A DNA stretch of 64,000 nt from a virus. The stretch spans positions 11,824 to 75,823 of the IMG/VR virus record IMGVR_UViG_3300006802_000087. The stretch is one strand, 5' to 3'. Shown one piece after another: positions 2,182 to 57,252 of this stretch. Below the pieces are notes generated by a model. It was not told where the DNA came from. It ran no database searches and saw only the letters and a program-made list of their open reading frames with translations. Position 1 is the stretch's first letter. Each line of letters begins with the position of its first letter. A program made the translations under genes and the position numbers.

Positions 2182-2569
2182 GGGCCCGTAATGGCTTCGA
2201 CGGAATAGAATCAAGGGGAGAATGCAAGCAGGGAAGATACGCCCTTAACAGTTCAAATTTTATAGTTGCAAATAATAACGCACACTTCGATTCAGTAGCA
2301 GTAGCTGCTTAATTGACGCCGGTATCTCTTCCGGTGCAAAACAAGAGGTTAGTCAGATGGGTGAGACGAAAAATTATAAGGGAGTCTAGCGGACTTTGCC
2401 GACACCTAAAATGGTTATCCACGTGGTATGTGGTGGAACTCAAGGTTACCTAGAGTTGGTGGAAAGAGGTGGCTATCCTTGTTATCAGGAGAAAAACGAT
2501 AACTAAGCTTGTGAACGACTCAAACTAAGACTATTGCGGACGCGGGTTCGACTCCCGCCGGGTCCACCA
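2182..2569 (+). ncRNA. ssrA: tmRNA; tag peptide ANNNAHFDSVAVAA* (2268-2312)
   Basis: GGGCCCG/CGGGTCC-ACCA acceptor stem with G3.U, TTCGAC D-region, GGTTCGACTCC T-arm, resume codon GCA and tag ending AA-stop. Confidence 0.95.
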
Positions 2570-33486: not shown

Positions 33487-33570
33487 GCCTTGATGGTGAA
33501 ATTGGTAGACACGCAAGACTTAAAATCTTGTTTCCGCTAGGAAGTACCGGTTCGATTCCGGTTCAAGGCA
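33487..33570 (+). tRNA. tRNA-Leu(UAA), CCA not encoded
   Basis: GCCTTGA/TCAAGGC stem, CAAGA-CTTAAAA-TCTTG anticodon arm, long variable arm. Confidence 0.9.
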
Positions 33571-33574
33571 TTAT

Positions 33575-33651
33575 GCACCCGTAGCTCAGCTGGATAGAGC
33601 ATCCGCCTTCTAAGCGGACGGTCACAGGTTCGAATCCTGTCGGGTGTACCA
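33575..33651 (+). tRNA. tRNA-Arg(UCU)
   Basis: GCACCCG/CGGGTGT-ACCA, anticodon TCT, GGTTCGAATCC. Confidence 0.95.
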
Positions 33652-33843
33652 CTTTGATATAACCGGGAATACGCTCCTCGTCCCCAGTTTTTATTTATGA
33701 GATGTTAGGACTATCTCGGTTATATCTTTTTTTAAAGAATGCAAGGGGGCTTCCTGAGGCGGGTCAGTCTTAAACGATGGTAATCCCAGGTGTACCGATA
33801 ATCGCGAAGATATGTCGGAGATATCACGCCCTTGCTTCTATGA

Positions 33844-33920
33844 TGCGGGATGGAGCAGTTGGTTAGCTTGTCGGGCTCATAACCCGAAGGTCGGGGGTTC
33901 GAATCCCTCTCCCGCACCCA
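33844..33920 (+). tRNA. tRNA-Met(CAU), initiator-like
   Basis: TCGGG-CTCATAA-CCCGA arm with three G-C pairs; ends CCA. Confidence 0.9.
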
Positions 33921-33951
33921 TTTTAAACAAACGAGTAACAAGAGAAAACAA

Positions 33952-34233
33952 ATGAGAATTTTAATATTACTATCTTATATAGGCTGTACACAGCACGTTC
34001 ATACAAAAGACATTAACAAAGTCAATGTGGGAATGTCATATGATACCACAACACGAATCTTAGGGGAGCCTAATAAAGTGGTAAATAATTCTATAAGGGT
34101 ATATCAAGGTACAGAAACTGCATACAATCATGAAGTTTTATTGTACAGATCACACTCAAATGCATCTGAGTCTCTTAGAGATTGTTATCTGATATTTACA
34201 GATAAAGTTTTAAGAGAAGTGAATTGTTTTTAA
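33952..34233 (+). CDS. Small lipoprotein, SmpA/BamE-like
   Basis: LLSYIGC; VNVGMSYDTTTRILGEP. Confidence 0.55.
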   Translation: MRILILLSYIGCTQHVHTKDINKVNVGMSYDTTTRILGEPNKVVNNSIRVYQGTETAYNHEVLLYRSHSNASESLRDCYLIFTDKVLREVNCF

Positions 34234-34241
34234 TGTTATTT

Positions 34242-34314
34242 GGGCACTTGGCGCAGCGGTTAGCGCAGGGAACTCATAATTCTTTGGTCGTAGGTTCAAA
34301 TCCTACAGTGCCCA
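34242..34314 (+). tRNA. tRNA with CAU anticodon, probably Ile2 (lysidine type)
   Basis: GGGCACT/AGTGCCC-A; body resembles E. coli ileX; elongator Met not excluded. Confidence 0.8.
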
Positions 34315-34422
34315 CTTTACTATCAATGCTCTGGGTTAGGTTAAAACTGCCGGTCGGATTAGGGCATTGATATAAAACTCCTTGGTTAATCCGACCGGCA
34401 CCCTTTTTAATTGGAGATAAAA

Positions 34423-42440: not shown

Positions 42441-42944
42441 ATGGGCGGCAAAGCTCTTAATGGAAAACAAATCACAAACGAAGAAGCACACCAACTTTTT
42501 GAACGACTAGTCTTAGATAACAACTTAGGATGCAAAGTTGAAAAGATCCTGCTTTGTGGATCAGCTCGTCGTGGAAAGGGCAAGTGCGGAGATCTAGACA
42601 TTGTGTTTATCGATGGAGGCGAAGAAGAAAATCTCTTGAAGAAGTGGCTAGTCGACAACTATGGTGTCAAAAAGAACGGAAAGCCACAGACAACAATCCT
42701 ATATGAAGGTGTCCAAGTAGAGTTCTATGAGGCAACACAGGAGTCATGGGGATCCAATGTTTTAATGTGGACAGGATCAGCATTCAATAATGTCCGCCTC
42801 AGAAGAAAGGCAAAGAAACGAGGCCTCAAGTTAAGTCAACATGGACTGTTCAATGAGCAAGGTGACAATGTGGCTGCTGGGATGACAGAGAATGACATCT
42901 ATGAATACTTAGGCTATGAATATGTTGAACCACAAAAACGATAA
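42441..42944 (+). CDS. Minimal family X DNA polymerase
   Basis: GSARRG..GDLDIV, WTGS..NVRLR..AK.RGLKLSQHGL, EYVEPQKR; 167 aa. Confidence 0.85.
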   Translation: MGGKALNGKQITNEEAHQLFERLVLDNNLGCKVEKILLCGSARRGKGKCGDLDIVFIDGGEEENLLKKWLVDNYGVKKNGKPQTTILYEGVQVEFYEATQESWGSNVLMWTGSAFNNVRLRRKAKKRGLKLSQHGLFNEQGDNVAAGMTENDIYEYLGYEYVEPQKR

Positions 42945-42951
42945 TAAATAA

Positions 42952-43058
42952 ACTCCGTGGTTGGTAGTTGATCCCAGTATTCGATCGATGAGATTATCGG
43001 CTGGGATTGGTGTCATAGGTGGTACCTATGGCGGACAGGGTGGGTATATATCAATCAC
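42952..43058 (+). ncRNA. Structured ACTCCGTGGTTGG element, copy 1
   Basis: Closing stem plus two hairpins and GGACAGGGTGGGTA; see findings. Confidence 0.6.
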
Positions 43059-43998
43059 AAGCAATCAAAGGAAATAAAATGGAATTAATACACTCAATCA
43101 TTGTATTGTCAATGTTTATGACAGCAGTTCTTGGCCCTATCTTTTTTGCGCTAAGAGACTTTAAAGAGGCAGACACGGAAACCAAGAAGACAAGAACACA
43201 CTTCATGAAGGGATAAGTATGAAAACATCATTAACACAATTGCAAATAAGCTTGGATGGCATCAACTGGACTGTAGCTGGAGAAGCGAAGTCTAATGTAA
43301 GTCGAGAAATGCTCGAGCTTAAAAGGTTGGAATGGGATCTAAGGAACAAACATCGAAAGACACCGGGTTTTAAGTTGCAATATGCCGAAGTAAAACAAAC
43401 AAAAATGTAACTCTATTGCACACCATGTATAATATAACCACAACCAATGGAGGCAAAATGGAAACACAACAAAAGACAAAGGTTTCAATCGCATTGATCT
43501 TGGACTTATTGGCGATCACATTAATAATACTTCGACTTACTGGAGTTATTCAGATTGATTGGGTTTGGGTTCTATCACCATGGTGGATACCTTTAACTTT
43601 GGCAGCAGGAATAACAGTAGCATCAATTGCAGACGAATGGATAAAATAATGAAACTGAAAATCAATTCAAAACATATTGAGTGGGTAGACCATGTATTCG
43701 CTTCTAGCTCAAGTCATAACATCTCAGCGTGTTATGCAGATGTAGGGAAAGCAAGGATCAAGAAGAAACTGATAGAGGCTGTCAGTGCAGGGGATCTACC
43801 GCGAGAAGTTGAAGTCACCGGTGAGGTAAATCTTTCTTTTAAGATTGCCAGCTATCAAAATGATGGCTTCTGGTTTCGATCAACTTCTACACACAAAGAC
43901 AAGATCTGGAAACTTTGGATCGAAGCTGAAGAGGCAATATGCGGACCAAAGCCATCACTACCTGAAATCATAAAACAAAAACACAAAAAGGGAAAGAA

Positions 43999-44958
43999 AT
44001 GAACTCAGAAATGATTCTCCTTGCAGGGAATGCCGTCCCTGTCTTGGCCGATTCAATCGCTAAACAATTAGGTCTTAGACTCTCTGAGGCAAATGTATCT
44101 CGTTTTTCTGACGGAGAGATATCTGTCGAAATCGATTCAAATGTGAGAGGAAGGGACGTCTTTATTGTTCAGTCAACATCTCAGCCAGCCAATGATCACT
44201 TGATGGAGTTGCTCATTATGGTCGATGCGTGTAAAAGAGCCAGCGCTGGTCGAATCACAGCTGTGATACCATATTATGGCTATTCCCGACAAGATCGCAA
44301 AGTCAGGTCTCGTGCTCCAATCACGGCAAAACTAATAGCAGATATGATAACTGTAGCCGGTGTATCTCGCGTTCTCACAATGGACTTGCACGCTGGGCAG
44401 ATCCAGGGCTTTTTTAATATGCCTGTCGATAATCTGTTTGCTTCAGGCATCTTGTCTGAAAGAATGCAACAAATCTTAAACGCCGACTGTGTTGATAACA
44501 CTGACTGTGTTGTCGTTTCTCCTGACGCAGGTGGTGCTGAGCGCGCGAGATACTTTGCAAAAAGGCTCGGAGCAGACATGGCAATCGTTGATAAACGAAG
44601 AAGTGAACCTAATCAATCAGAAGTCATGAACATTGTGGGTGATGTGAATGGAAAGACAGCAATTATTGTTGATGACTTGGCTGACACAGCGGGAACTCTC
44701 TGCAAGGCAGCTACAGCTCTCAAAGAACAGGGAGCAATAGAAGTTTATGCTTGTTGCACACATCCCGTTTTATCCGGTCCCGCATTCGAAAGAATAGCGC
44801 AGTCAGATATCAAAAAAATCTTAGTAACAGACACAATCGATCGATTAAAAAGTCAGAATAAATCAGATAAAATTGAAACAGTATCAACAGCTTCTTTATT
44901 CGCAGACGCGATTGAAGCCATTCACAAGAACTCGTCTATCTCTCGCTTATTCGGATGA
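43999..44958 (+). CDS. prs: Ribose-phosphate pyrophosphokinase
   Basis: FSDGE, PYYGYSRQDRK, DLHAGQIQGFF, VSPDAGG, VDDLADTAGT. Confidence 0.95.
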   Translation: MNSEMILLAGNAVPVLADSIAKQLGLRLSEANVSRFSDGEISVEIDSNVRGRDVFIVQSTSQPANDHLMELLIMVDACKRASAGRITAVIPYYGYSRQDRKVRSRAPITAKLIADMITVAGVSRVLTMDLHAGQIQGFFNMPVDNLFASGILSERMQQILNADCVDNTDCVVVSPDAGGAERARYFAKRLGADMAIVDKRRSEPNQSEVMNIVGDVNGKTAIIVDDLADTAGTLCKAATALKEQGAIEVYACCTHPVLSGPAFERIAQSDIKKILVTDTIDRLKSQNKSDKIETVSTASLFADAIEAIHKNSSISRLFG

Positions 44959-45344
44959 TAGACAAACAAAAGGGGAGACAATGAAAACAATCTTAACAGT
45001 AAAAGAAGCAGTATATGGATTCGAATCTTATTATGTTGTAAAATACACAGACGGTTCTTCGAAGATAATACATTATCTTACCAAAGAGCTTGAAAAACAT
45101 CTCGAGGAGTAAATAAATGTTGTCAATAAAAACTTTAAAATATGTTAAGGAAATAATCAATCTTCACGACGACGTTGGAGTTTGGGCAATAACATCTAAA
45201 ATGGTCTTTGACTATATTAAGAATAAAGATAAAAGTATAACAGAAGAAGAAGTAAAACAATGTTTTGATGTATTATCAAAAAATAATAAAATTGTGTTTG
45301 ATGAGACTCGATCTTTTGTTCGACCTGTTAACTTAAAAGAATAA

Positions 45345-45472
45345 ACTCCGTGGTTGGTGTTTAAGTCTGCACAGCAATGATAAGGCTGACTCTGAAACAT
45401 GAGACATAAGAAGGGCAGACGGAGAGAGAGCTGGTTACTCTCGGGACAGGGTGGGTATATAACACCAACACA
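45345..45472 (+). ncRNA. Structured ACTCCGTGGTTGG element, copy 2
   Basis: GTTGGTGTT/AACACCAAC, GTCTGC/GCAGAC, GAGAG/CTCTC, GGACAGGGTGGGTA. Confidence 0.6.
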
Positions 45473-47381
45473 CAAAAATGTAACAGTACAAAACCAATAA
45501 TATAATATAACCATAACCAATCAAGGAGATAACTTATGAAAACACCATCAACAACCAAAACCCTAATCTTTGGGATTGCAATCGGTATCTACACTGACTG
45601 GGGATTATTGCTAACAGACCTTATCAAAGGTTTTACTTTTACAACTGACTTAGTTGCTGAACAGTTTAATCTAGACAAAGAAAAACAGACAGTTCCAGAA
45701 TATAAAGAAGAAAGTACATCACAAAATGTAACAGTACAAAACCAATAGTATAATATAACCACAACCAATCAACCAAACATGGAGGCAATATGCCAAAACA
45801 AAACACACTCCCTAAATACTCAAATGATCCGAACTTTGTGGGATACCCATTCTTTTATGTTGTCGAAGACTATAAATGTGAATGTCATGAATGTGCTACT
45901 GAATCCCGCGATGAAGGTAAGACAGTGACACCACATGTCAACTATGATGACCCACAACTCTATTGTTTCACATGCTCAGAACAAATTGAAGCTTCAAATG
46001 GTGCTCATGAAACTGATGAAGATGAAGACGACGGGAATGATGATGACTTCGTTCTTGAAGGTCGACGACTTCTCCGCGACCGATGCTTTTACATCTAAAA
46101 TGTAACACTGACACACATAGTGTATAATATAAAAGAACCAATCAACCAAGGAAATAATATGACAAAAAAACTTAAAACACCTGATGTATACTATCGAGTT
46201 CGATTAGCATGCCCAGGTCGAAACCTGGCAATAGAATATATCGATGGTACTGATGAAGCTGCCGGCAGGTATTATGAGACATGGCGACTTATCGACTTGG
46301 ATACAGGTGAAGTATTCGCAAAGGATGTCGTTCCACACGAAGTATTGTCCGTTGCATCTGAAATGACTAGTCAAAGCTCATATGAGAATATCACAGGAGA
46401 GTTTGAATATATTCGCGAAGCCAGACAATACCGTTTATTCAAAGATCTACCTCTCAAAGAGCGAATGAAGTATATCCTGTCACATGCTCAAGACTTAGAG
46501 AAAGACTTCAACAATGACGGTATTGATGCTGATCCGATCGAAGTAGCAACACAAGAAATGAACGATATGTATAATGAAACCCCGTGCTTCTATCATGACT
46601 CTGAAAAGAATGAATGGGTCTTAGATACAGACATGTACTAGAGGTGATGAATGAATACAAAAAACTATACATTGCGATGGCTCTTTCATGGTAAAGAACC
46701 ACAGTCCCATGAAATGGCGAATGCCACACTCCAGTCAGTACAAACTTATATCAACATCCTCAAAGGCTGGGGTTGCATGCACTTCAAGTTAGTTGATGAC
46801 ACCGGGCATGAATATGAGATCTCGAGAATGGGCACAATAAAGGCATTACAAAATGTGTAACACTGACACACATAGTGTATAATATAAAAGAACCAACCAA
46901 GGAGACACAATGCCAAACATTCAAGAAACACCTAGGACATTCAAGGATGTCAAAGTAGGCGAAAACTTTTTGATGAGTGACGGTAAGTATACAAAACAGA
47001 GCTCGAGAACAGCAACAAGCTGGCGATCGGGTGGAACGATATATATCACTTCAAGTCAAAAGATTCGACAAGTAAAACATTCATGGGGATGGGGAGTTTA
47101 ATATGAAAATAACAGTAGACAAAACATACAAAGTTGGTGACACAGTACGGTATGAGACTTTCACTGGAGAATTGAGGACTGTCAAAGTTACTGAAAAGGA
47201 TGATGAGATCAAGAACAGCCGAGCAGGTTTTAGTGGCACTGATGTGCACACCCTTCAATCGGTCTGGGGACTAAACGATCAAATACTCAGAGTATATTGT
47301 CAAGAACAAAAACGCTGGAAAATGTAACATTGTCACACACTGTGTATACTATATCCATAACCAACCAACCAAGGAAACACA

Positions 47382-47732
47382 ATGAGATACTTCTCACTTG
47401 ATTACCGTTCACCTCCATCTGGAATGGGTCAAATTATCGACAGTACACAATACAAGAGGGTCGGAGACAAATGGAACATGATCTTGGTAGACTATGGAGA
47501 TAATCCGCATGAAGATCCAACCTATACTCAGACCAAGTACTTTCACTCTGAGCAAGCAGCACAAGAAGGGTGGCCAGGCCCAATCATACCAGAGATCATC
47601 CAGTATCTCCGTGATCAAGGGGTCACTCATGTACATGACGCGGAGCTCTCATATGACTTTTTTGCAACAGGTGAGTTCGGTTACTTCCCGATCGACCAAT
47701 GGGCCGAGATCATGATGAACATGTTCAAATAA
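47382..47732 (+). CDS. Hypothetical protein, tandem paralogue A
   Basis: YFSLDYRSPPSGMGQI, GVTHVHDAEL. Confidence 0.75.
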   Translation: MRYFSLDYRSPPSGMGQIIDSTQYKRVGDKWNMILVDYGDNPHEDPTYTQTKYFHSEQAAQEGWPGPIIPEIIQYLRDQGVTHVHDAELSYDFFATGEFGYFPIDQWAEIMMNMFK

Positions 47733-47764
47733 ACAAGCAAAATCGCTTAATCACAGGAGTCTAC

Positions 47765-48115
47765 ATGTCAAATCTAGATAAACTTACTTACTTCTCAATC
47801 GATTATCGATCACCACCCAGCGGATTAGGTCAGATTGTTTTCCCGGGTGGGAGTGATAAACCTGCTGATCTCGTTCTTGTCACTTATAAAGGCAATGGTG
47901 ATGTTGCAAATCCGTTTTACAAAGCCACCCAGCACTTTCCTGAAGATCTGTTCGAAGAGGGCGGCAGAGAGTGGCTAGCTGAAAAGCTTCTTGGCTATGG
48001 TGTCACTCATGTTTATGATCCAGAACTGGGAGACCAGTGGGGAATGTCTCAGCATCTTGGCGAGCATTACTATCCCATTGCGATCTGGTTTAACCGAACC
48101 TTTGGTGCATTATAA
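47765..48115 (+). CDS. Hypothetical protein, tandem paralogue B
   Basis: YFSIDYRSPPSGLGQI, GVTHVYDPEL. Confidence 0.75.
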   Translation: MSNLDKLTYFSIDYRSPPSGLGQIVFPGGSDKPADLVLVTYKGNGDVANPFYKATQHFPEDLFEEGGREWLAEKLLGYGVTHVYDPELGDQWGMSQHLGEHYYPIAIWFNRTFGAL

Positions 48116-48559
48116 AATGTAACACCACAAAACCGGTAGTATAATATAACCATAACCCACGGAGGCACCATGAAAACTTACATATTCCCCACACTCAATA
48201 CTCAGGCAATCACAAGAAATGTTAATGAGATCCTCTCTGATGCTGAGTCATCTGTTCGAACTCGAACTTTTGGCGACTTACTCGTGGCGGCACAGATTGC
48301 CAAGAAAGAAGCAGACAAGTGGTTGTCACCCGAGTCATTGATCGCTAATGAGGGACTTGCTTCTCACTTCATATCTAGAGATTGGGCAAATCTGCAACAG
48401 ATCTCAGATGTTTTACACCACTTCTTGCTGACAGGTGAAGTTTCTATCAAGGCAATGGATCAAGAAGACATTGATAAAGAACTGAAACGCTTACACTAAA
48501 ATGTAACACCACAAAACTAACAGTATAATATAAAAGAACCAACAACCACCGGAGGCAAT

Positions 48560-49120
48560 ATGCCAGAGCTTCACACAATCAAAACATTCACATTCTCAGA
48601 ACTTCCAGAAGACATTCGACAAGAAGTCATTGAAGCCTACGAGGTGCCTGATAACTGGGACGAATGGGTTATCGATGCAATCAACGAAGAAGCTGCTGAG
48701 CTCGGTATCGAAAACTTCGACTTCCAATACTCAGGCTTTTGGTCTCAAGGCGACGGAGCTTCTTTCACCGGCACATTATCAACAGAACTCCTGACTTCGC
48801 TTTTGAAAGAGGAAGTCAATGAAGAACTCAGTTTCAATATAACTACATGCACGGCTCAAATCGACCGCAAGTCATACCCACATTATGTACATGAAAACAT
48901 GGTCTATGCTAGTTTCGACAGTGGAGATGAGCCTGTCACAGACGAAGACCGTGATGCTATTCTCACAGCATTGGAAGCATGGAAGAATGCATTATGCTCC
49001 AAATGGTATCGGCAACTTCGAGAATCATATGACGCAGAATATGAAGAAGAGAGAATCGCTGAAGAGTTTGAAGGCACTCGTTTTCTGAGAAATGGTAAGG
49101 TATTCGACTTTAACTTTTAG
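48560..49120 (+). CDS. Acidic conserved hypothetical protein
   Basis: YSGFWSQGDGASF motif; promoter at 48501. Confidence 0.7.
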   Translation: MPELHTIKTFTFSELPEDIRQEVIEAYEVPDNWDEWVIDAINEEAAELGIENFDFQYSGFWSQGDGASFTGTLSTELLTSLLKEEVNEELSFNITTCTAQIDRKSYPHYVHENMVYASFDSGDEPVTDEDRDAILTALEAWKNALCSKWYRQLRESYDAEYEEERIAEEFEGTRFLRNGKVFDFNF

Positions 49121-49124
49121 TTAG

Positions 49125-49230
49125 ACTCCGTGGTTGGAGTGGTGGCAGTATTCGCTCATTGATCAGCGGCTGCAACCACGGTGACACAGGTGGTAACTGT
49201 GGCAGGAAAGAGGTGGGTAACCAACCAAGG
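49125..49230 (+). ncRNA. Structured ACTCCGTGGTTGG element, copy 3
   Basis: TGGTTGG/CCAACCA, GTGGTGGCAG/CTGCAACCAC, CACAG/CTGTG, GGAAAGAGGTGGGTA. Confidence 0.6.
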
Positions 49231-51357
49231 CTAACAAAAAATGTAACACCACACAACTGGTGGTATAATATAAAAGTAACCAACCAACAAGGAGTTCAAC
49301 ATGAAAGTTAAGTTTCATATCAGAGTTTACACAAACCCAGGTGGTCCCCGTGCGCATTGGAAAGATCAGGAGTTTGAAGATGTGGATCACATCGGAACAG
49401 TGGTCGGAAAACGAAGAGTTCGAGAAGACTATTGGACTCGGTTCGACTATGAAGTTGAGTATCAAACTGAGGACGGTAAAACTTTATACCGATGGGTACC
49501 CGACTACAATGTTGTAAAGATCGACGAAGCAAATGTGTAACCACACAAAACAGTTAGTATAATATAACCACAACCAACCAAACAGGAGTTCATATGAACA
49601 TATACAGCAACATTCTCAACCGTTACTTCGATTACAAAGGCCAAGCTTGGCAAGTTATCGGACATTGTGAAGACAGATACGGGCAGACTTTTCGAAAGGT
49701 GATCAACATGAAAACAGCAGAGGAAATATACCTAGGCTACGAAGAGTTTTGGAAGGTGACACCCCGAGGCTACTCACACAACGGAAATGTAACAGCATAA
49801 AACCAATAGTATAATATAACCACAAAAACTAACCAAGGAAATAATATGATTATCACACTATTAGCACACCATATCGAATGGGACACCGACGGAAACAATG
49901 ATGTTGCGCGATCACTGCCGTCTAAGGTAGCAGTTGAAGTCGACTTAGTCGAAGATTCCGAAGCAGGATCGATTAATGACCAGATCTGCAACCAGTTATC
50001 AGACTTAGTCGGCTTCTGTGTTTTGGACTACAAACTGGAAGGATACTCAGCTGAGGCTGATTATGCTCTTCAAATGACCGGCACAAAATCGGAAGCATAA
50101 TAAAACCATAACCAATCAACCAATACAGGAGGCAATATGCCAAAATACCAAGGACACAAAAACTGGAACCACTGGAACATCGAACTCTGGATCAGCAATG
50201 AATATGATGTTTACAAACGAGTTCAATACCTTCTCGGCCGCAAACATATCTCAAAGAACGAGATCGCATCAGTCTTGTTAGGAGAGCTCCGCAATCGCTG
50301 GGGTGAGACAACACCAGACGGAGCACCTCTCACATACACAGGGATCCGAGCACACTTGACCGGTGTCGACCGCGACGACTACTAATACAAAAAGTGTAAC
50401 ACCACAAAACCAATAGTATAATATAAAAGAACCAACAACAACCAACACCCAAAAGGAGTCATTATGACTACAACAATCAGTATCAAAACAGGAAACTACG
50501 TGAAGTCTATTCAGTCAAGAGAGGCAGTCTATCGAATCAAAGCCGTAACAGCTGACACTGTCACCCTCAAGAGAGTTAACGGTCGCCTTAACGGTGAGTA
50601 TGAAGTTCCTCGATCGACCTTCTCTAAATACTTCCACGCAGCAGCATAAGAGTTCACATGAGTCAGGAAAGAGCAATCATCATTGAGGTCGAGTCCCTCC
50701 TCCACGAGGGACAATCACCGGCTGTCATAAAGAGAGCAATAGAAAAGAAATACATCAAGAGCTTCTCCCAAAAAGACTGGGAGCGCATCATGATCCAGGC
50801 ACAGCTAAGAAGAGCATTCACACGGCCAGTACCATAATGCAAAAGAACACCAAAGTGTAACAGAACAGAGCCAAGTATATAATATATCTACAACCAAAGG
50901 AGACCGCATGTTTATCAAACTCACAAAGGTAACACAAACAACAACAGGATACGGTGTGTCTCTCAAAGTAGACAGCATCCAAACAGATATCTGGATCAAC
51001 ACCTCCCATATCATTACAATGTATATATCAGGCCTGACATATGTCAACACCACTCATGAGACGATCAAAGTGTTAGAGACACCTGAGCAGATCATTGCTC
51101 TCATGAGCGCCGAGTAGGAGAGAGGTAACCATGACAGGAAGAGTCATCTACAGATTCGCAAGAGAGATCCTCCGAGAGCCACTCATCCTCGCTCGGGTAT
51201 CACTGCGCCAGGAGTATCACTATACTCGACAACTTTTAAGGCAGCGACTGCGCCGCTGTGGCCGTATGGCCACAGTCAGGGAGGTGCTGAGTCGGCATGT
51301 GGAGAATGCAGAGACTCGGGACAAGGGCATATTCTTTTAACTCCTCTGTGCGGGGTG

Positions 51358-51377
51358 GGAAATGATAATCATTATCA
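51358..51377. promoter_or_regulatory. Fur-box-like operator
   Basis: GGAAATGATAATCATTATC, 17/19 to the classical consensus; perfect 7-1-7 TGATAAT-C-ATTATCA. Confidence 0.55.
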
Positions 51378-51566
51378 ATTGGGTTCGGACTAAGTGCGCG
51401 AGATGAAAGTGAGTTATTCGATCGACTTGACTTAAACATACGAACGACCGACAGCACTTTTATGAACTCTCCCCGGGGCGGGTTGCCGCAAATCCTCACA
51501 AAAATGTAACGGCTCTTCACACCCTGTATAATATAATCACAACCCATCCAACCAAGGACAACAACC

Positions 51567-52319
51567 ATGAAACTTAACGTTAAAATCGAAGATATCGCTT
51601 TTGGTACTTCAATCCAAGATATCGCTGTACCGGCTCTCCTTCAAAAGCGCATTCCTAGTGGCCTCGGCTTCTTTGATTATGCACTCGGCGGGAAAGGCTT
51701 TACTCCCTCTCTCTGCGGTCTCTTTACTGGAACACCCGGAGCAGGCAAAACTACAATGATGCTCACTCTGGCTAATGCACTCCAAGGACATGGAGCTCAG
51801 GTGATCTTCAACACGGCAGAGGAATCGCTCTATCAGGTAAAGATGACAGCCAATCGACTTAAACTCCGTCATCCATTCTGTGTCGGCGGTGAGTCTAATG
51901 TTCCTAGCCTCCTCAAAGGCTGCGATACAGTGCGCGAGGCTCATCCCGATCGCCCCTTCTTCCTCATCGTCGACTCTCTGCAATGTATGGATGACGGGCA
52001 CTTCAACAGCGGTCGTATCACCACAGCAACAGCAGAACGCAGTCTGGCCCAACTCACCTCATATGCCAAGGAAAACGGGTGCAATGTGCTGGTCATCGGG
52101 CAGGTAAACAAGGACGGCAAGATGTCGGGATCGAATAAGCTCAAGCACATGGTGGATATGCACATTCACCTCTCTGTGGAGGAAAAGGATGAGGACCTCC
52201 GCGGTTGTCGCATTCTCTCTACAGCCAAGAACCGTTTCGGAGGCTCAGGCCACTTGGTTTATCTCAAGCTCATGAAATCAGGGTTCACAGAAGTGGCTCG
52301 CTTAGGTGAGGGGAGTTAA
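51567..52319 (+). CDS. RadA/Sms-like ATPase (ATPase core only), copy 2
   Basis: Same motifs as 32293..33048; KNRFG. Confidence 0.85.
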   Translation: MKLNVKIEDIAFGTSIQDIAVPALLQKRIPSGLGFFDYALGGKGFTPSLCGLFTGTPGAGKTTMMLTLANALQGHGAQVIFNTAEESLYQVKMTANRLKLRHPFCVGGESNVPSLLKGCDTVREAHPDRPFFLIVDSLQCMDDGHFNSGRITTATAERSLAQLTSYAKENGCNVLVIGQVNKDGKMSGSNKLKHMVDMHIHLSVEEKDEDLRGCRILSTAKNRFGGSGHLVYLKLMKSGFTEVARLGEGS

Positions 52320-52338
52320 TCCCCGCCTTCGGGCTCTT

Positions 52339-52422
52339 TGTATCTCGCGCTACGCACGCGTATACGCGCGGGATCCTCTGGGCACAATGTATCTCGCGCT
52401 ACGCGCGTACTGCGCGCGCGAG
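52339..52422 (+). repeat. 17-bp direct repeat TGTATCTCGCGCTACGC with alternating-CG tails
   Basis: Copies at 52339 and 52388. Confidence 0.8.
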
Positions 52423-53527
52423 AGCTTTTATGTAACAGGACACACAGGGTGGTATAATATAAAGGTACCACAGGAGGACACATGGACAGAGGAATAACAC
52501 TAACACATCTAATGATTCATTATACCGATGGCAGCAAAGGTTCACTAGACCTCACTCAGTCATCGCCATGGCGCCGCCAGAAGTTATTACGCGAATGGTC
52601 GGAGCAATCACACGTCGCATCAGCTTATCTATACAAAGGACACTAGGAGACACTATGACACAATTCAACAACACATATCAAAACGGTTTTAAACTTCTCT
52701 TCTTGGCCGTGTGGCCCGGTGAGGATCACTCCCCAGAGATCTGGACACGAGGTGACATTGCTGCCGACTTCGAAGACAGCCCTGAGGTTCTATCACTCAT
52801 CGATCAGATGGAACTGGGTGACAGTATCCGGCATGAAGAGTCCAATCTGGTCTTGATCCGTATCCCCGACTACTTATCCCAGCAGAGCTTATTGGCTCAG
52901 TTCTAACCCTTCTCCCACCTCCGAGATAGGGAATAACAGTTATGACCAAAAGTGTAACCGTTATTCCCGTGGTGTATAATATAAAAGAACCACAGGAGGT
53001 AACATGGGAAATGAAAGGATAACCATTAAGATAACCGTTAAGGGAAGATGGTGTGATAATGATGAATATGACCAGTATGGGGAATTGATCCGTTGGCCTA
53101 ATCCAGATCCGTTAGTAGTCTGGAACAGTGGGTGTTGGGACAAGGAACTAGGCCAAGGGGTGATGATGGAAATGCCCGCCTCGAAGTTTAGAGAGCTCAC
53201 CGGTCATATTATATATGGAGGGGATATTGAACCTCGCGGCCTTCATAAGATATCGATCCTGTTTGGGGATTACACCCGACTTAAGTCCTATAGAGAGGAA
53301 GGGGTCATCATTCGAAGAGCTCGAAAGAAGTCCGGAACTCCCAAACAAGTAAGAACCCTCCCAGGTCGAGACAAGCTCAAAGAGGTATTGGAAGGCCGAG
53401 GTCAACAGCTCAAAGGTGTTCAAGCCAGGGTCCGGAAACGGACCTGAGCTCCCTCACAAAAAATGTAACAGCACTACACACCCAGTATAATATAAAAGAA
53501 CCAATCAACCAACAACGGAGGCCAAAC

Positions 53528-53953
53528 ATGGCTACTACAAAAACTCTCCTCTCAAACCTTTCAAGCCTTGTGCATAACGGTGTCATGACCCAAAAGGAAG
53601 CTGACAAGTTCAAAAACCGTATTCTCAAGGAAATCCAACAAGCCGAGCACGATCAAAAGGTCCAAGCTCTCTCACTCAAAACTTCTGAGTTCATGACTCC
53701 AGGTGTTCAATACTCCATCTCCGACCTGGTCAAGGAAGTGATGGGAATCCTGGCACCCTGTCATGGTCACAAGGAAACCAAAGCTGAACAAAAGCATCGA
53801 GATGGAGTTGCTAAACCCCTGATGAAAGCGGCCTTGGAGAACCTAGGTGCGGTAACAGTGGGAAGTGGGGCACAAACTCGATATATGATCCCACCTCAAC
53901 TTCCTGCCCTGGCTCCCATCACTGTAGAACCTGAAGCTCATGATGAGGACTAA
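53528..53953 (+). CDS. Hypothetical protein, paralogue of 60462..60902
   Basis: MATTKTL, ISDLVKEVMGI, APCHG, QTRY shared. Confidence 0.8.
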   Translation: MATTKTLLSNLSSLVHNGVMTQKEADKFKNRILKEIQQAEHDQKVQALSLKTSEFMTPGVQYSISDLVKEVMGILAPCHGHKETKAEQKHRDGVAKPLMKAALENLGAVTVGSGAQTRYMIPPQLPALAPITVEPEAHDED

Positions 53954-54211
53954 CCCATAACTTGGGAGGGGTTATACAAAAAGTGTAACCCATTCCCTCT
54001 CTCAGTATAATATAAAAGAACCACAACAACCACAACGGAGTCATCATGACAGTTATCTACAAAGGCAACACCTATCGTTTCATCGGCTATGTTGGTCTAC
54101 CTGGCACAGAAGTCACAGCTGAACGCGGCGGCAAGTTCTATCGGTTACCCGTCAGTCAGTGTCAACTCATCCGCCAAACCGCTTAACCTCAACCCATACT
54201 TAGGAGTCACC

Positions 54212-54472
54212 ATGACAACACTTATCTTTACTGCACTTATCTCATTGGCAACAGCTGAACCGGTTCAAGAAGCAACAGCTGAACCCACTCAAGAAGCACC
54301 AGTTGTCTTCATTGACTTCGATGAGATCTCTCTCACAGGGGAGTTGGTCAAGCCGTCACTTACTTTGGTTGTAGCTGACCGACAGCCGGCTCAGCCTGAT
54401 CTTCTCATTCCAGATCTCCGTCAGTTCGTGCTGGATATGGAGCGCGCGAAAGTAGCTGAGCCGGCTAAATAA
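54212..54472 (+). CDS. Secreted CglF/GltF-like small protein
   Basis: Signal peptide MTTLIFTALISLATA; IDFDEISLTGELVKP; AGGAG RBS. Confidence 0.6.
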   Translation: MTTLIFTALISLATAEPVQEATAEPTQEAPVVFIDFDEISLTGELVKPSLTLVVADRQPAQPDLLIPDLRQFVLDMERAKVAEPAK

Positions 54473-56590
54473 AGGGAAGTGATTGAGGGTCGGGCAAAGG
54501 AGAAGTTCGCCTGGCTCTCTCTCTTTTGTGTAACAACACATCAAGCATTGTATAATATAACCACAACCACCGCAGGAGATACTATGCGACTTTACAAGGA
54601 CAAAAACAATCACAGCCTCAGACGCCGCTCGCGCAAGAACCGTCAATTGCAGAAGCGATATGAAGAAGAGTTGAAGCAACAGCAACAGCGCGCCGCAAAG
54701 AAGCAATGGCTGAGCATTCTGGCAGAACTCGCTGAAGATGCAGACTAGGGAGAGAATATGAGACAGTTTTTGAAAGACCCAGACAATATGGGTTTCGTTT
54801 GGTTGGCGGTTATCGTCACAGTTTTTGCCTTCCTCATCTATTGGGAGGCGGGACAGAATACGCCGGAGAGGCAAGCAGAGAGTGATCTGCGTCTTAAGTG
54901 TATCAGCAAGGCTAGTGGTTCCCAGCCAGAATGCTGGGACGAGAAGGACTGGCAGGTATTCTGCCAGAAGACCGGAATATGTAGGGGGACAAAATGAGCA
55001 ACGACAGAGACTACTTTAACATTCCCGGCACAGATCGAAAGCTAGCGATCGACAGAGTTCTGGTCTTGCCATTGGCATTTGCAGTTCCCTTCGGTCTGAT
55101 CGCTATCATGATCTGGGCAGTAGGTATCGGCTGGACCTTCACCATTGTGGCTGCCTTGGTGCTATGGCGGATCCTGGATGGCATAAGACTGGTATAAAAT
55201 GTAACGCTGTGTCAGGTGGTGTATAATATAAACAACCACCACAGGAGGCAACATGGTTATCGTTATCGGACTCATGATCATCACATTAGGACCATTATTC
55301 TTATTGACCCTCACACCCCCAAACAACGGAGACAAATAATATGGTAGGATGGATACTTGCTGCAATGGCAGCAGACTTAGTGCATACAAAGGCAGCGGAA
55401 GCAGAGAAGCAAAAGCGGATCAAGCGGATGGGGCAACTACAGTTCCTCCTTGGTCGTCCGGCAACGCGCACTCACTTCATGGACTGTAGATGCGGATTAT
55501 GCCGCAACCGCAGAACAGCCTGGCAGGCTGAACTGGACAGGCTAAAGTGTAACTGCTAACACAACCCAATATAATATACAAGAACCAACCAAGGAAATAC
55601 CATGACAGCATTACTCGTTATCAACGCATTCTTACTTTTAATTGTCGCAGTCAAAATTGAACGAATGGCACATCAACAGTTCGAACTTGACAATGACGAT
55701 GCAAACTACAACGACTGGGACTTTGGTTTCAGTGACAAATAGGAGGTAACATGACAGAACTCATCATCCCAGGCGGAGTATTCTTCCCTCACAGCACAAC
55801 ACCTAAACCCAGACCAAAGGATCGACCATGACAGCAGAACAATTAGAACAGCAGTTAGAGCAACTTAAAGACCGTATCAATGCTCTCTGGGTAGAGCGAG
55901 AGGCACAGGAGCAGCGACGTCGCCGGGCAAATCAGGCAGCGAACAACCATGTGTATGAAGTGGGTTACAGTCACAGCTGGATGGAATACACCTCGATCAG
56001 CAACGCAGCCGCGGCAGCAAAAGAGAGATTGACAGAGATCAGCAGCGAACTGGATCAGGCATATGCAGAGCAGAGAGAACTACTGGAACAATGTAACGCA
56101 CTTGCAGGCTTGGTATAATATATAGGTCAACCATCAACGGAGATAACATGAAACACGAACTTTTACTTACAAATGAAGCAGCAACTTACTTCGCATCACA
56201 GGGACAAACACAGCAACAAGTCCTCCGCAATATGGCCTTGGTAGCAGATCAGATCTGTGAAGCCAAAGGCTGGACAGTGGGCATCAACGCCATGGTGGTC
56301 ATCCGGGAAGCAGTGACCGGTGGCAGCACTGGACTTAAACCCTGGTTCGTCATCAATCAGGTGCTGGATACTCACAAGACGGCTGTAAGCGATCCTGACT
56401 TAAACCGCAATACACCTTCACTCAATCGTCATGCACACTGTATCCTTACATCTCGCAAGAACGGGCCGAACCGCTATGGTGGCTTCACTCGTCTGGTGGC
56501 ACAAGCAAGGAACGGCAACCTGACACAGCGCATTGTGTAACACCACCTCACACCCTGTATAATATAACCACAACCCCAATCGGAGATACT

Positions 56591-57187
56591 ATGACTAGTC
56601 ACACTAAAAGTCAAATCCAAACCTTGCTCAACAACCCAGCCTATGTCGACGAGGCCATCCGCATTCTTGGCCAGAACCAGACACCAGGCGAACTCCGTGC
56701 CAAAAGCACACATATCAACAATGACATCGGCTTCTCAGCAGCATACGGCACCACCGGCACTCGTCTCTTTGAGTTCGTCACTGGCATCAACACCAAGACA
56801 GGTGAGAAGAAGTGGCAGCCCAAGTCACTGGCACACCCAGTCGCTAATCGAGTCTTCAGCCGCTACATCAACAATCACGGCTTGGACAGTGCATTGGCAC
56901 TTGGCCAGAAGATTGCTGGGATCCACTGGAAGCAACTGGGAGAACTTCTCACCTGGCAACCAGTTACCTTACCCACAAAGCCGGTGGAAGTAAAGAGAGA
57001 CAACGACGGAACTGCAGCATCCATCACCATCCGTGGTGTGGAAGTACAGCTAGTGAAAGGAAAGGCAGTCCGTGTGCTATGGGACAGCAAGAGAGTCTGG
57101 TTGCCGAAGTCTCAGATCCAAATCAACGCATCCTCAGGCGACATCACAATGCCACGATGGCTCGCTCGCAATAAAGGCATGCTCTAA
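56591..57187 (+). CDS. Conserved phage protein
   Basis: QTPGE..THINNDIGF; C-terminal WLPKSQI..MPRWLARNKG. Confidence 0.7.
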   Translation: MTSHTKSQIQTLLNNPAYVDEAIRILGQNQTPGELRAKSTHINNDIGFSAAYGTTGTRLFEFVTGINTKTGEKKWQPKSLAHPVANRVFSRYINNHGLDSALALGQKIAGIHWKQLGELLTWQPVTLPTKPVEVKRDNDGTAASITIRGVEVQLVKGKAVRVLWDSKRVWLPKSQIQINASSGDITMPRWLARNKGML

Positions 57188-57193
57188 AGAATA

Positions 57194-57252
57194 ACTCCGT
57201 GGTTGGTGTTTGGAAGAGTGGCAAAAGGACGCTGCTCTTCCTCTTACCGCCG
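57194..57252 (+). ncRNA. Short ACTCCGTGGTTGG element, copy 4
   Basis: ACTCCGTGGTTGGTGTT then hairpin GGAAGAGTGGC/GCTGCTCTTCC. Confidence 0.5.

Follow-up and report, generated by a model that had tools for sequence, protein, structure and literature searches.

An RNA element in an array of early cassettes

The window analysed here, a 64-kb stretch of a 75.8-kb viral record in IMG/VR (IMGVR_UViG_3300006802_000087), carries four copies of an RNA element on its + strand, all of them inside an array of small early gene cassettes. CheckV puts the completeness of the record at 37%, and the genome is therefore probably about 200 kb in size. The window helicase shares 37% identity with its counterpart in Tunturiibacter phage Tunturi_5 and 31% with that in Bacillus phage G, and the nearest record, a 202-kb IMG/VR contig, shows a helicase identity of 79%. 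The source is a large, uncultivated aquatic phage that is probably virulent. No close cultured relative of the window was found, and INPHARED gave no nucleotide match. Public sequencing runs that contain window sequence are labelled freshwater and salt marsh.

Where the array begins (about 40.8–58.6 kb), GC content goes up from 0.34 to 0.48; roughly 30 near-identical promoters were mapped within it (Table 1). Each cassette consists, in this order, of an AAAATGTAACA-N16-GTATAATATAA promoter, a CA-rich leader resembling AACCAACCAAGGAG, an ATG and one small open reading frame (ORF). Promoters before 40.5 kb have the same −35 and −10 sequences and lack the CA-rich leader. The leaders of the array are the putative targets of the element.

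The word ACTCCGTGGTTGG occurs in four exact copies on the + strand, where 0.47 are expected by chance, and none of 100 shuffles reached six matches at two or fewer mismatches. An earlier note, made by reading the same DNA, had placed four such elements close behind stop codons; its coordinates are exact, with stops ending 0–7 nucleotides (nt) before the word. That note also described the architecture of copies 1–3, which we confirmed from the sequence: a closing stem (P1) surrounds a variable hairpin (P2) and a second hairpin (P3), forming a three-way junction. The P3 stems differ among the three copies (CATAG/CTATG, GAGAG/CTCTC and CACAG/CTGTG), the loop is TGGT(A/T) in each, and the segment that follows reads GGA(C/A)AG(A)GGTGGGTA. 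Copies 1 and 3 have a common P2, CAG-TATT-CG(A/C)T...A(T/G)CG-G-CTG, in which an A-T pair is replaced by C-G in a compensatory manner. The four elements had been taken as one family, and this holds for the 5′ motif. However, copy 4, in which the motif merely precedes a simple GC-rich hairpin, as the earlier note implied, belongs to a second class.

Copy 1 is operon-internal and has no promoter after it; the next gene begins with AAGGAAA-N5-ATG at 43079. Both its minimum free energy (MFE) and its centroid structure are three-way junctions (−38.4 kcal/mol, z −2.7), and its P1 contains A18-U where the consensus is G-C, a compensatory change. Copies 2, 3 and 4 are followed by TGTAACA-N16-TATAAT and a leader, as are 59 of the 92 full elements described below. 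The box of copy 2, AAAGAATAA, overlaps the stop of the preceding ORF (45117–45344). In copy 3, the motif variant GGAGTGG creates a perfect local hairpin (ACTCC:GGAGT, −7.5 kcal/mol), and its fold is ambiguous because the MFE structure favours pairing of CCGTGGTTG with the internal CAACCACGG. Copy 4 ends with TCTTACCGCC, which is able to pair back with GGT..GG, and near-identical relatives are present in two metagenome contigs (L158 and L194). None of the four copies has the GC-rich hairpin followed by a U-run that characterizes an intrinsic terminator; only some relatives of copy 4 do.

Table 1. Coordinates of the elements, their parts and other features of the window.
Feature	Position	Strand	Basis or remark
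Copy 1, full element	42945..43058	+	sequence, fold, covariance-model hit 97.2 bits
Copy 1, upstream stop TAA	42942-42944		7 nt before motif
Copy 1, A/U-rich box	42945-42951
Copy 1, 5′ motif	42952-42968		variant GGTAGTT
Copy 1, P1 5′ strand	42957-42966
Copy 1, P2	42970-43008
Copy 1, P3	43011-43033
Copy 1, G-rich junction	43034-43048
Copy 1, P1 3′ strand	43049-43058
Copy 2, full element	45336..45471	+	sequence, covariance-model hit 92.8 bits, P1 probability 0.99
Copy 2, upstream stop TAA	45342-45344		0 nt before motif
Copy 2, 5′ motif	45345-45361
Copy 2, P2	45365-45420		subtype I, multi-hairpin
Copy 2, P2/P3 junction (J2/3)	45421-45425		GGAGA
Copy 2, P3	45426-45442		GAGAG/CTCTC, loop CTGGTTA
Copy 2, junction after P3	45443-45460		GGGACAGGGTGGGTATAT
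Copy 2, P1 3′ strand	45461-45471		AACACCAACAC
Copy 2, promoter −35	45479		TGTAACA
Copy 3, full element	49121..49227	+	sequence, covariance-model hit 81.8 bits
Copy 3, upstream stop TAG	49118-49120		4 nt before motif
Copy 3, 5′ motif	49125-49141		variant GGAGTGG
Copy 3, P2	~49138-49183
Copy 3, P3	49185-49201		CACAG/CTGTG, loop GTGGTAA
Copy 3, junction after P3	49202-49219
Copy 3, P1 3′ strand	49221-49227		CCAACCA
Copy 3, promoter	49242
Copy 4, class-b element	57188..57251	+	sequence; fold −31 kcal/mol, z −4.0; AGAATA box
Copy 4, upstream stop TAA	57185-57187		6 nt before motif
Copy 4, 5′ motif	57194-57210
Copy 4, hairpin	57212-57241		GGAAGAG...CTCTTCC
Copy 4, 3′ segment	57242-57251		TCTTACCGCC; no T-run
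Copy 4, promoter −35	57254
Early cassette array	40817 (also given 40566)..58640	+	regex map of promoters and leaders; ~30 near-identical promoters
Transfer-messenger RNA (tmRNA) gene	2182-2569	+	full length; Rfam 103 bits
Four-tRNA cluster	33487-34315	+	Leu-UAA, Arg-UCU, two Met-CAU
Family-X nucleotidyltransferase gene	42441-42944	+	167 amino acids; directly before copy 1
Phosphoribosyl pyrophosphate (PRPP) synthetase gene	43999-44958		near copy 1

A family of RNAs distributed in viromes

Metagenome contigs were scanned with an exact 18-mer word, which recovered at least 116 contigs from TARA and other marine sets; the family counts given here refer to the matches listed. After removal of duplicates, these matches comprise 109 distinct instances with flanks, of which 92 are full elements (class a) and 17 have this 5′ motif with a simple hairpin or terminator behind it (class b). 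Six of the class-b members have a T-run and look like intrinsic terminators (L160, L172, L206, L217, L241 and L242). A minimal member (L230) consists of the closing helix P1 alone, GGTTGGTGTT-AACACCAACC. With seven seeds, a covariance model was built that detects full forms at 54–97 bits. The family has at least 92 distinct full members outside the window and, as described below, shows strong covariation in P3.

The number of motif copies per phage record is only 1–4, compared with tens of leaders or cassette borders. An exact-word scan of IMG/VR returned mostly chance matches, together with the same architecture in four other records, and a pattern scan of this database found the known elements and three chance matches only. 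Applied to the complete records of five related phages, the model detected no diverged copies. Two weak matches from the model in two related records (G001:C1:16572–16669 and G002:C1:51645–51742; 10.6 bits, expectation value (E) of roughly 0.7–1) are possibly degenerate copies or noise.

Searches of other collections were negative. In 185,579 prokaryote genomes, the 18-mer has six matches, all of them by chance and without the architecture, and neither megablast nor blastn gave a match in cultured phages. The earlier note had recognized no known RNA family in the elements, and a search of Rfam 15 agrees: there is no gathering-score match on the elements, none at E ≤ 10 across 42–58 kb and none at E ≤ 1 on 16 metagenome loci of other subtypes. 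The motif was not found in the searchable literature either. It is therefore a well-supported conclusion that the element represents an uncatalogued RNA family that has many metagenomic relatives and is absent from Rfam, cultured phages and the searchable literature.

A covarying hairpin within a three-way junction

The most strongly supported helix is P3, a 5-base-pair hairpin with the loop YUGGUWA. Across the alignment, 99.4% of its cells are paired and all five pairs vary on both sides. Its score was reached by none of 500 shuffles, and there is no slid register near it. Indeed, the five strongest mutual-information pairs of the whole alignment are exactly those of P3, and the same scan shows no tertiary or pseudoknot covariation outside this hairpin. 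G-U pairs occur on the + strand only, which identifies this as the functional strand.

P2 is 17–94 nt long and is made up of unrelated sequences in several recurring subtypes (mean folding z −3.5), with a terminal helix that abuts the next junction in 89 of the 92 full elements. Subtype I, the commonest (window 45396–45409; also L140, L151, L227 and others), includes a small hairpin with the invariant loop UGAAACAU, whose 3-base-pair stem covaries when the sequences are read side by side (CCC/GGG, CUC/GAG and GUC/GAC). Thus, the ‘variable’ arm holds conserved modules. An apparent replacement of P2 in another sample (45363 to 45420) was considered as an allele and set aside, as it has sides of only 30 nt and is probably a related element.

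To form P1, the segment GUGGUUGGUG(UU) of the motif pairs with a CACCAAC-like strand located directly after the G-rich junction. The mean energy of this helix is −18.1 kcal/mol, compared with −10.4 kcal/mol for shuffled tails and −9.1 kcal/mol upstream of 433 element-free promoters (p ~ 1e-47), and its mean formation probability in partition-function folds is 0.91. P1 and P2 were missed by automatic RNAalifold analysis owing to the alignment register. The junction after P3 conforms to GGG-N3-GGG-Y-GGG, with invariant G-tracts and varying spacers, and the junction before P3 reads GG(A/U/C)G. Whether this second junction is of the GGAG or GGUG type does not correlate significantly with the extension of P1 (p = 0.08). 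A pairing of ACUCC with GGAG across P1 is possible and 82.6% compatible; it shows no covariation, its two sides being nearly constant, and 25 of 92 members have a mismatch there (U-U or U-C).

The 5′ motif can also fold on itself. RNAalifold applied to 28 short members yields a local hairpin, here called HP5, with the structure (U/A)AAC-U-CCG[UGGU]UGG-U-GUU(A/U) and an energy of about −5 kcal/mol. Its flanking pair is A-U in 55 members, U-A in 32 and another combination in 22 (Fisher p = 3e-11), and within a single P2 subtype there are 13 A-U pairs, 10 U-A pairs and no mismatch. The motif variants of the window retain HP5. Since HP5 and P1 use the same nucleotides, the two structures represent mutually exclusive states and a switch is plausible. 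The earlier note had suggested a riboregulator with the closing stem as its switch; a structured + strand family with an antisense 5′ end is what we find, and the switch itself is plausible on the grounds that HP5 excludes P1.

Complementarity of the motif to early leaders

The earlier note had also reported that the 5′ end of the element complements two leaders. These are the only near-matches of the 13-mer on the minus strand of the window (46893–46905 and 53509–53521), and each of them pairs at 12 of 13 positions. The complementarity extends further, to nearly all CA-rich leaders at 40.8–58.6 kb, with which the motif is calculated to form duplexes of −13 to −20 kcal/mol (also given as −15 to −20 kcal/mol). 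Shuffled motifs give −8 to −10 kcal/mol, and at most a few of 200 match the leader pairing of the real motif. For leaders before 40.5 kb, pairing is at the control level.

The 5′ strand is invariant, also in secondary copies that lay outside the search selection (GGTGGT, GGTAGT and one ACTTCC variant), whereas the 3′ strand of P1 takes forms such as CACCAAC, CATCAAC, CACCGAC and CAATCAC. Because the 5′ strand does not change while its cis partner does, it must be constrained by something beyond P1. Judging from the sequences, pairing with many leaders is the simplest candidate for this constraint, and protein binding is an alternative.

Genomic context of the elements

Ten A/T-rich bases, often AAAGAATAA, precede the motif, and the upstream ORF ends −11 to +1 nt relative to it; the stop is TAA in 102 of 108 cases. 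The distances behind the rule of the earlier note, that elements start at a stop codon, are accurate. However, the rule itself proved to be a by-product. For copy 4, the A/U-rich box comes after the real stop, and in one subfamily, present at five loci (including L026, L164, L182 and L229), the element follows a tRNA-Leu(UAA) gene, instead of an ORF, at a distance of 14–15 nt. These contexts indicate that AUAA(A) is part of the element, namely the outer stem of HP5, and that ORFs merely run up to it. The tRNA context furthermore argues against mechanisms that need a terminating ribosome everywhere and favours an RNA module suited to any transcript.

Downstream, two arrangements occur. A promoter follows 59 of the 92 full elements, with its −35 sequence abutting the 3′ strand of P1, and in the other 33 a ribosome-binding site (RBS) and an ATG follow directly. 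In this second group, the 3′ strand of P1 sits where the CA-rich leader belongs, and in some members it runs into GGAG, so that the Shine–Dalgarno sequence pairs with ACUCC (for example CATCAACTAGGAG in L169 and L164). Thus, the closing strand is the real leader of the next gene in about one-third of cases, which favours action in cis at least as much as in trans. The full elements lack a T-run, and A-runs come after them; they are therefore not intrinsic terminators.

The ORFs upstream of the elements fall into 24 clusters, the largest of which, with 34 of 99, corresponds to the family of ORF 48560–49120 in the window (PHROG 5162, function unknown), whereas those downstream fall into 65. This greater coherence upstream indicates that the element travels with the preceding gene and that exchange takes place between the element and the next gene. 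Pfam and PHROGs searches of the flanking genes revealed nothing that points to an RNA-binding partner. In some contigs (L026:4750–4830, L164:640–730, L142 and L231), the GC-rich word (A)TCTCGCG(C/G) is present as two or three repeats in the interval that separates the element from the following gene; these repeats could be a different type of promoter or operator.

A candidate switch on early translation

The element probably controls translation of early genes, to judge from its complementarity to their leaders. More specifically, the reading that we favour, tentatively and without yet calling it probable, is that it functions as an anti-leader RNA switch on translation, in cis and perhaps in trans. 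We infer each functional step of this model from the anatomy, covariation, complementarity and distribution described above.

In the proposed model, the element would act as RNA of the gene strand, and early transcripts would contain it as their 3′ untranslated region (UTR), as a spacer between cistrons or as a tRNA trailer. The constant part of the element, AUAA(A)CUCCGUGGUUGG(UGUU), would serve as an ‘anti-leader’ to the CA-rich enhancer and Shine–Dalgarno sequence of early genes, and this activity would depend on ACUCCGUGGUUGG. The strand would have two mutually exclusive partners in cis. One is the weak local HP5, a pairing of ACUCC with GGUGU or GGAGU, and the other is the strong, long-range P1, formed with the leader-like CACCAACCAC located 80–160 nt downstream. 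P1 would close the three-way junction composed of the swappable P2, the conserved P3 and the invariant G-tract junction, and in doing so would sequester the leader region before the next cistron, which is a real leader in about one-third of members, some of them with GGAG. A strand free of P1, either in class-b members or before P1 has been transcribed, could instead pair with any one of some 30 early leaders. In both cases, translation initiation of early cassettes would be lowered. The conserved junction may set the balance between HP5 and P1 through some factor, and is thus a candidate sensor or protein site. If a processed stable RNA is made, it would start at AUAACUCC.

Several observations are consistent with this anti-leader model. 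The motif is real and non-random, P1, P2, P3 and HP5 are each supported, and the pairing with leaders is confined to the region in which leaders are CA-rich. The size of the family, the invariance of the 5′ strand against a varying 3′ strand, the small number of elements per record (1–4, against tens of leaders), the 33 full elements with an RBS and an ATG directly behind them and the minimal member that retains only the P1 hairpin were also counted in its favour.

A number of points weigh against the model. Members of the family are known as DNA sequences and predicted folds, and searching with an exact word by its nature enforces part of the motif invariance seen among the metagenome members. 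HP5 is supported by one covarying pair, with statistics that ignore relatedness. In 59 of 92 full elements, the closing strand precedes a promoter and so is not a working leader, which limits any effect in cis to read-through transcripts. At equilibrium, the anti-leader is buried in P1, and full elements would thus need to be opened to act in trans. Moreover, the motif is not optimized for the majority of its targets, because it has an invariant G where the commonest leader, CCAAGGAG, needs a U. Finally, the anti-leader model leaves the conserved junction and the loop of P3 without a role.

Alternative explanations

The closest competitor, which we judge somewhat unlikely, holds that the element is a boundary module of the PeSL (promoter-early stem-loop) type, acting mainly as a transcription attenuator, an RNA-stabilizing 3′ end and a substrate for homologous recombination where cassettes meet, with its leader complementarity a by-product of a closing hairpin formed with adjacent leader-like DNA. 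PeSL cassettes of T4-type phages contain a stop codon, a stem-loop, an A-rich tract, a sigma70-like early promoter and a Shine–Dalgarno sequence, and lie in a hyperplastic region (Arbiol et al. 2010, PMC2839356; Comeau et al. 2014, PMC4122927). The same order of parts is found here at borders of small early or ORFan genes, and class-b members with T-runs have the form of textbook intrinsic terminators. Identical subtypes of the element lie beside genes from the 65 downstream clusters.

Cassette exchange is also apparent. Contigs from four other samples contain leader-to-leader joints (45777→49299, 57293→54037, 57295→49299 and 53496→47358), and such contigs also join 57248→58587 with an alternative promoter between. 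Cassettes have therefore been gained, lost and swapped between populations, as the PeSL explanation anticipates. However, all joints observed lie in promoter and leader repeats and none within an element, and there are too few elements for the many cassette borders. Whereas PeSL stem-loops are simple G/C terminating hairpins, most members here are three-way junctions that lack a T-run and precede A-runs. Their covarying P3, invariant G-tracts and invariant 17-nt anti-leader start exceed the needs of a terminator or recombination site, and one subfamily lies behind a tRNA. For 41–51 kb of the window, the assemblies of other samples offer only short, low-depth contigs.

A more far-reaching version of anti-leader action, which we regard as rather unlikely, is a structure-gated ‘universal anti-leader’. 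In this scenario, the three-way junction would be a sensor, built around the P3 loop and possibly a G-tract core, that keeps a 13–17-nt anti-enhancer and anti-Shine–Dalgarno strand in P1, frees it on a signal and so silences about 30 early cassettes at once. The signal might come from a factor of phage or host, from a ribosome that terminates or from processing. Such a device would be an RNA counterpart of the early shut-off by RegA and RegB in T4.

It is improbable that the element is a nascent-RNA site like nut/boxB of lambda or put of HK022, at which the 5′ hairpin would recruit a protein or modify RNA polymerase so that it passes the terminators that follow, with the three-way junction adding affinity. 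The small hairpin of the motif, conserved and with a covarying pair and a UGGU loop, fits this possibility, as do the invariance typical of protein-binding sites, the constant co-orientation of the element with transcription and, in class b, the position of this hairpin directly before a terminator, in the manner of nutR before tR1. However, a terminator is absent after most full elements, no N-like or Q-like gene was identified, and no similarity to put or nut models appeared in the Rfam searches. The leader complementarity and the long-range P1 would also be left unexplained.

Even less probable is a self-cleaving ribozyme or RNase processing site, where cleavage at the A/U-rich 5′ boundary would split off cistrons or tRNA trailers and free a stable RNA closed by P1. 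The 5′ boundary is indeed sharp and has an A/U-rich box, its two ends pair with each other, like those of stable processed RNAs, and the element can follow a tRNA, where processing enzymes act. The possible ACUCC:GGAG pairing across P1 recalls the double pseudoknot of ribozymes like that of hepatitis delta virus (HDV). However, this candidate pseudoknot carries the mismatches noted above and does not covary, the roles of the helices are inverted relative to HDV, with a variable hairpin at the place of the catalytic P3/L3, and class-b members are without the core. No Rfam ribozyme matched, the hammerhead, twister, pistol and hatchet models included, even at E up to 10.

Last, and highly improbable, is a mobile or recombination element acting at the DNA level (a miniature inverted-repeat transposable element (MITE), Correia-like or integron attC-like), with GGTTGGTGTT and AACACCAACC as terminal inverted repeats. 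Inverted repeats do surround a variable centre, the minimal form is palindromic and one subtype occurs in many gene contexts. However, the 3′ repeat varies in sequence and spacing while the 5′ repeat is invariant, and compensatory changes in helices together with G-U pairs on one strand point to selection on RNA. No transposase or integrase was present among the neighbours tested, the attC core RYYYAAC/GTTRRRY does not fit, and the element is absent from the 185,579 prokaryote genomes.

Other ideas were considered and dropped: read-through or bypassing of the stop codon (disfavoured by the tRNA context and by a stop phase that ranges from −11 to +1), imitation of the 3′ end of 16S RNA (motif and anti-Shine–Dalgarno sequence agree in sense and otherwise differ), a hammerhead inside P2 subtype I (G8 is missing and no model matches), a P3 loop that mimics the tRNA-Thr anticodon or partners the ACCA 3′ end, and a G-quadruplex in the junction.

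Comparison with known RNAs

The c4 RNA of phages P1 and P7 and the CI RNA of phage P4 repress translation; in temperate phages, c4 serves as a single regulator for one operon, and it is processed by RNase P. The element resembles these antisense RNAs in being a structured phage RNA in which short segments are complementary to an RBS region on the same transcript, the motif–leader duplexes being strong and the closing strand lying beside or including the Shine–Dalgarno sequence in about one-third of members. However, there is no similarity in sequence or to the C4 model (Rfam RF01695), the target motif is common to about 30 cassettes, and the antisense strand doubles as the closing strand of the fold. 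The key-lock covariation expected by analogy with c4 and CI was not seen, as the motif is invariant.

Class b has the layout of Hfq-type small RNAs (sRNAs) from 3′ UTRs, such as CpxQ and SroC, in that a seed, a terminator hairpin and a U-tail follow the stop, behind an A-rich (AAG-AAU-AAA) tract. In contrast to these sRNAs, most members of the family lack a terminator and the seed would target the leaders of the phage itself. The tRNA-Leu subfamily is reminiscent of the species 1 and 2 RNAs of T4 (rnaC and rnaD), which are stable, structured RNAs of unknown function, transcribed together with the phage tRNA genes just before them. These are not homologous, however, since the model gives 8 bits or less on the T4 locus, and most members follow protein genes.

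Translational riboswitches, for example of the purine type, likewise have a three-way junction closed by P1, a conserved junction, a P1 3′ strand at or near the RBS and a competing hairpin. Here, however, the 5′ strand of P1 is invariant rather than covarying, no ligand is known, and about two-thirds of the elements lie upstream of a promoter rather than in a 5′ UTR. Nor are the downstream genes coherent, with their 65 clusters compared with 24 upstream. Taken together, the kinds of element that the family resembles are already known (PeSL cassettes, c4-type anti-RBS RNAs, 3′ UTR sRNAs and orphan phage RNAs), and by these comparisons there appears to be a real chance of something more.

Other features of the window

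The window also includes a tmRNA gene, to which ARAGORN assigns the tag peptide ANNNAHFDSVAVAA. Phages seldom carry such a gene, and it might point to the host group. Its tRNA cluster has no element behind the tRNA-Leu gene. The gene that precedes copy 1 encodes a minimal nucleotidyltransferase comprising the palm and thumb of DNA polymerase beta, and a PRPP synthetase gene lies nearby.

Implications

The family described here has more than 90 distinct members that are widespread in marine and freshwater viromes, and it lies in arrays of tiny early genes, of all parts of large phage genomes the one that is least understood. The invariant 13-nt word would provide a handle for locating such early regions in metagenomes. 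Even if the element is only an elaborate insulator like that of PeSL cassettes, it would demonstrate that cassette borders can bear strongly selected RNA structures. If the anti-leader model is correct, one short strand could throttle translation of dozens of early genes through their common leader, and this would constitute a simple global timing device of a kind not described for virulent phages.

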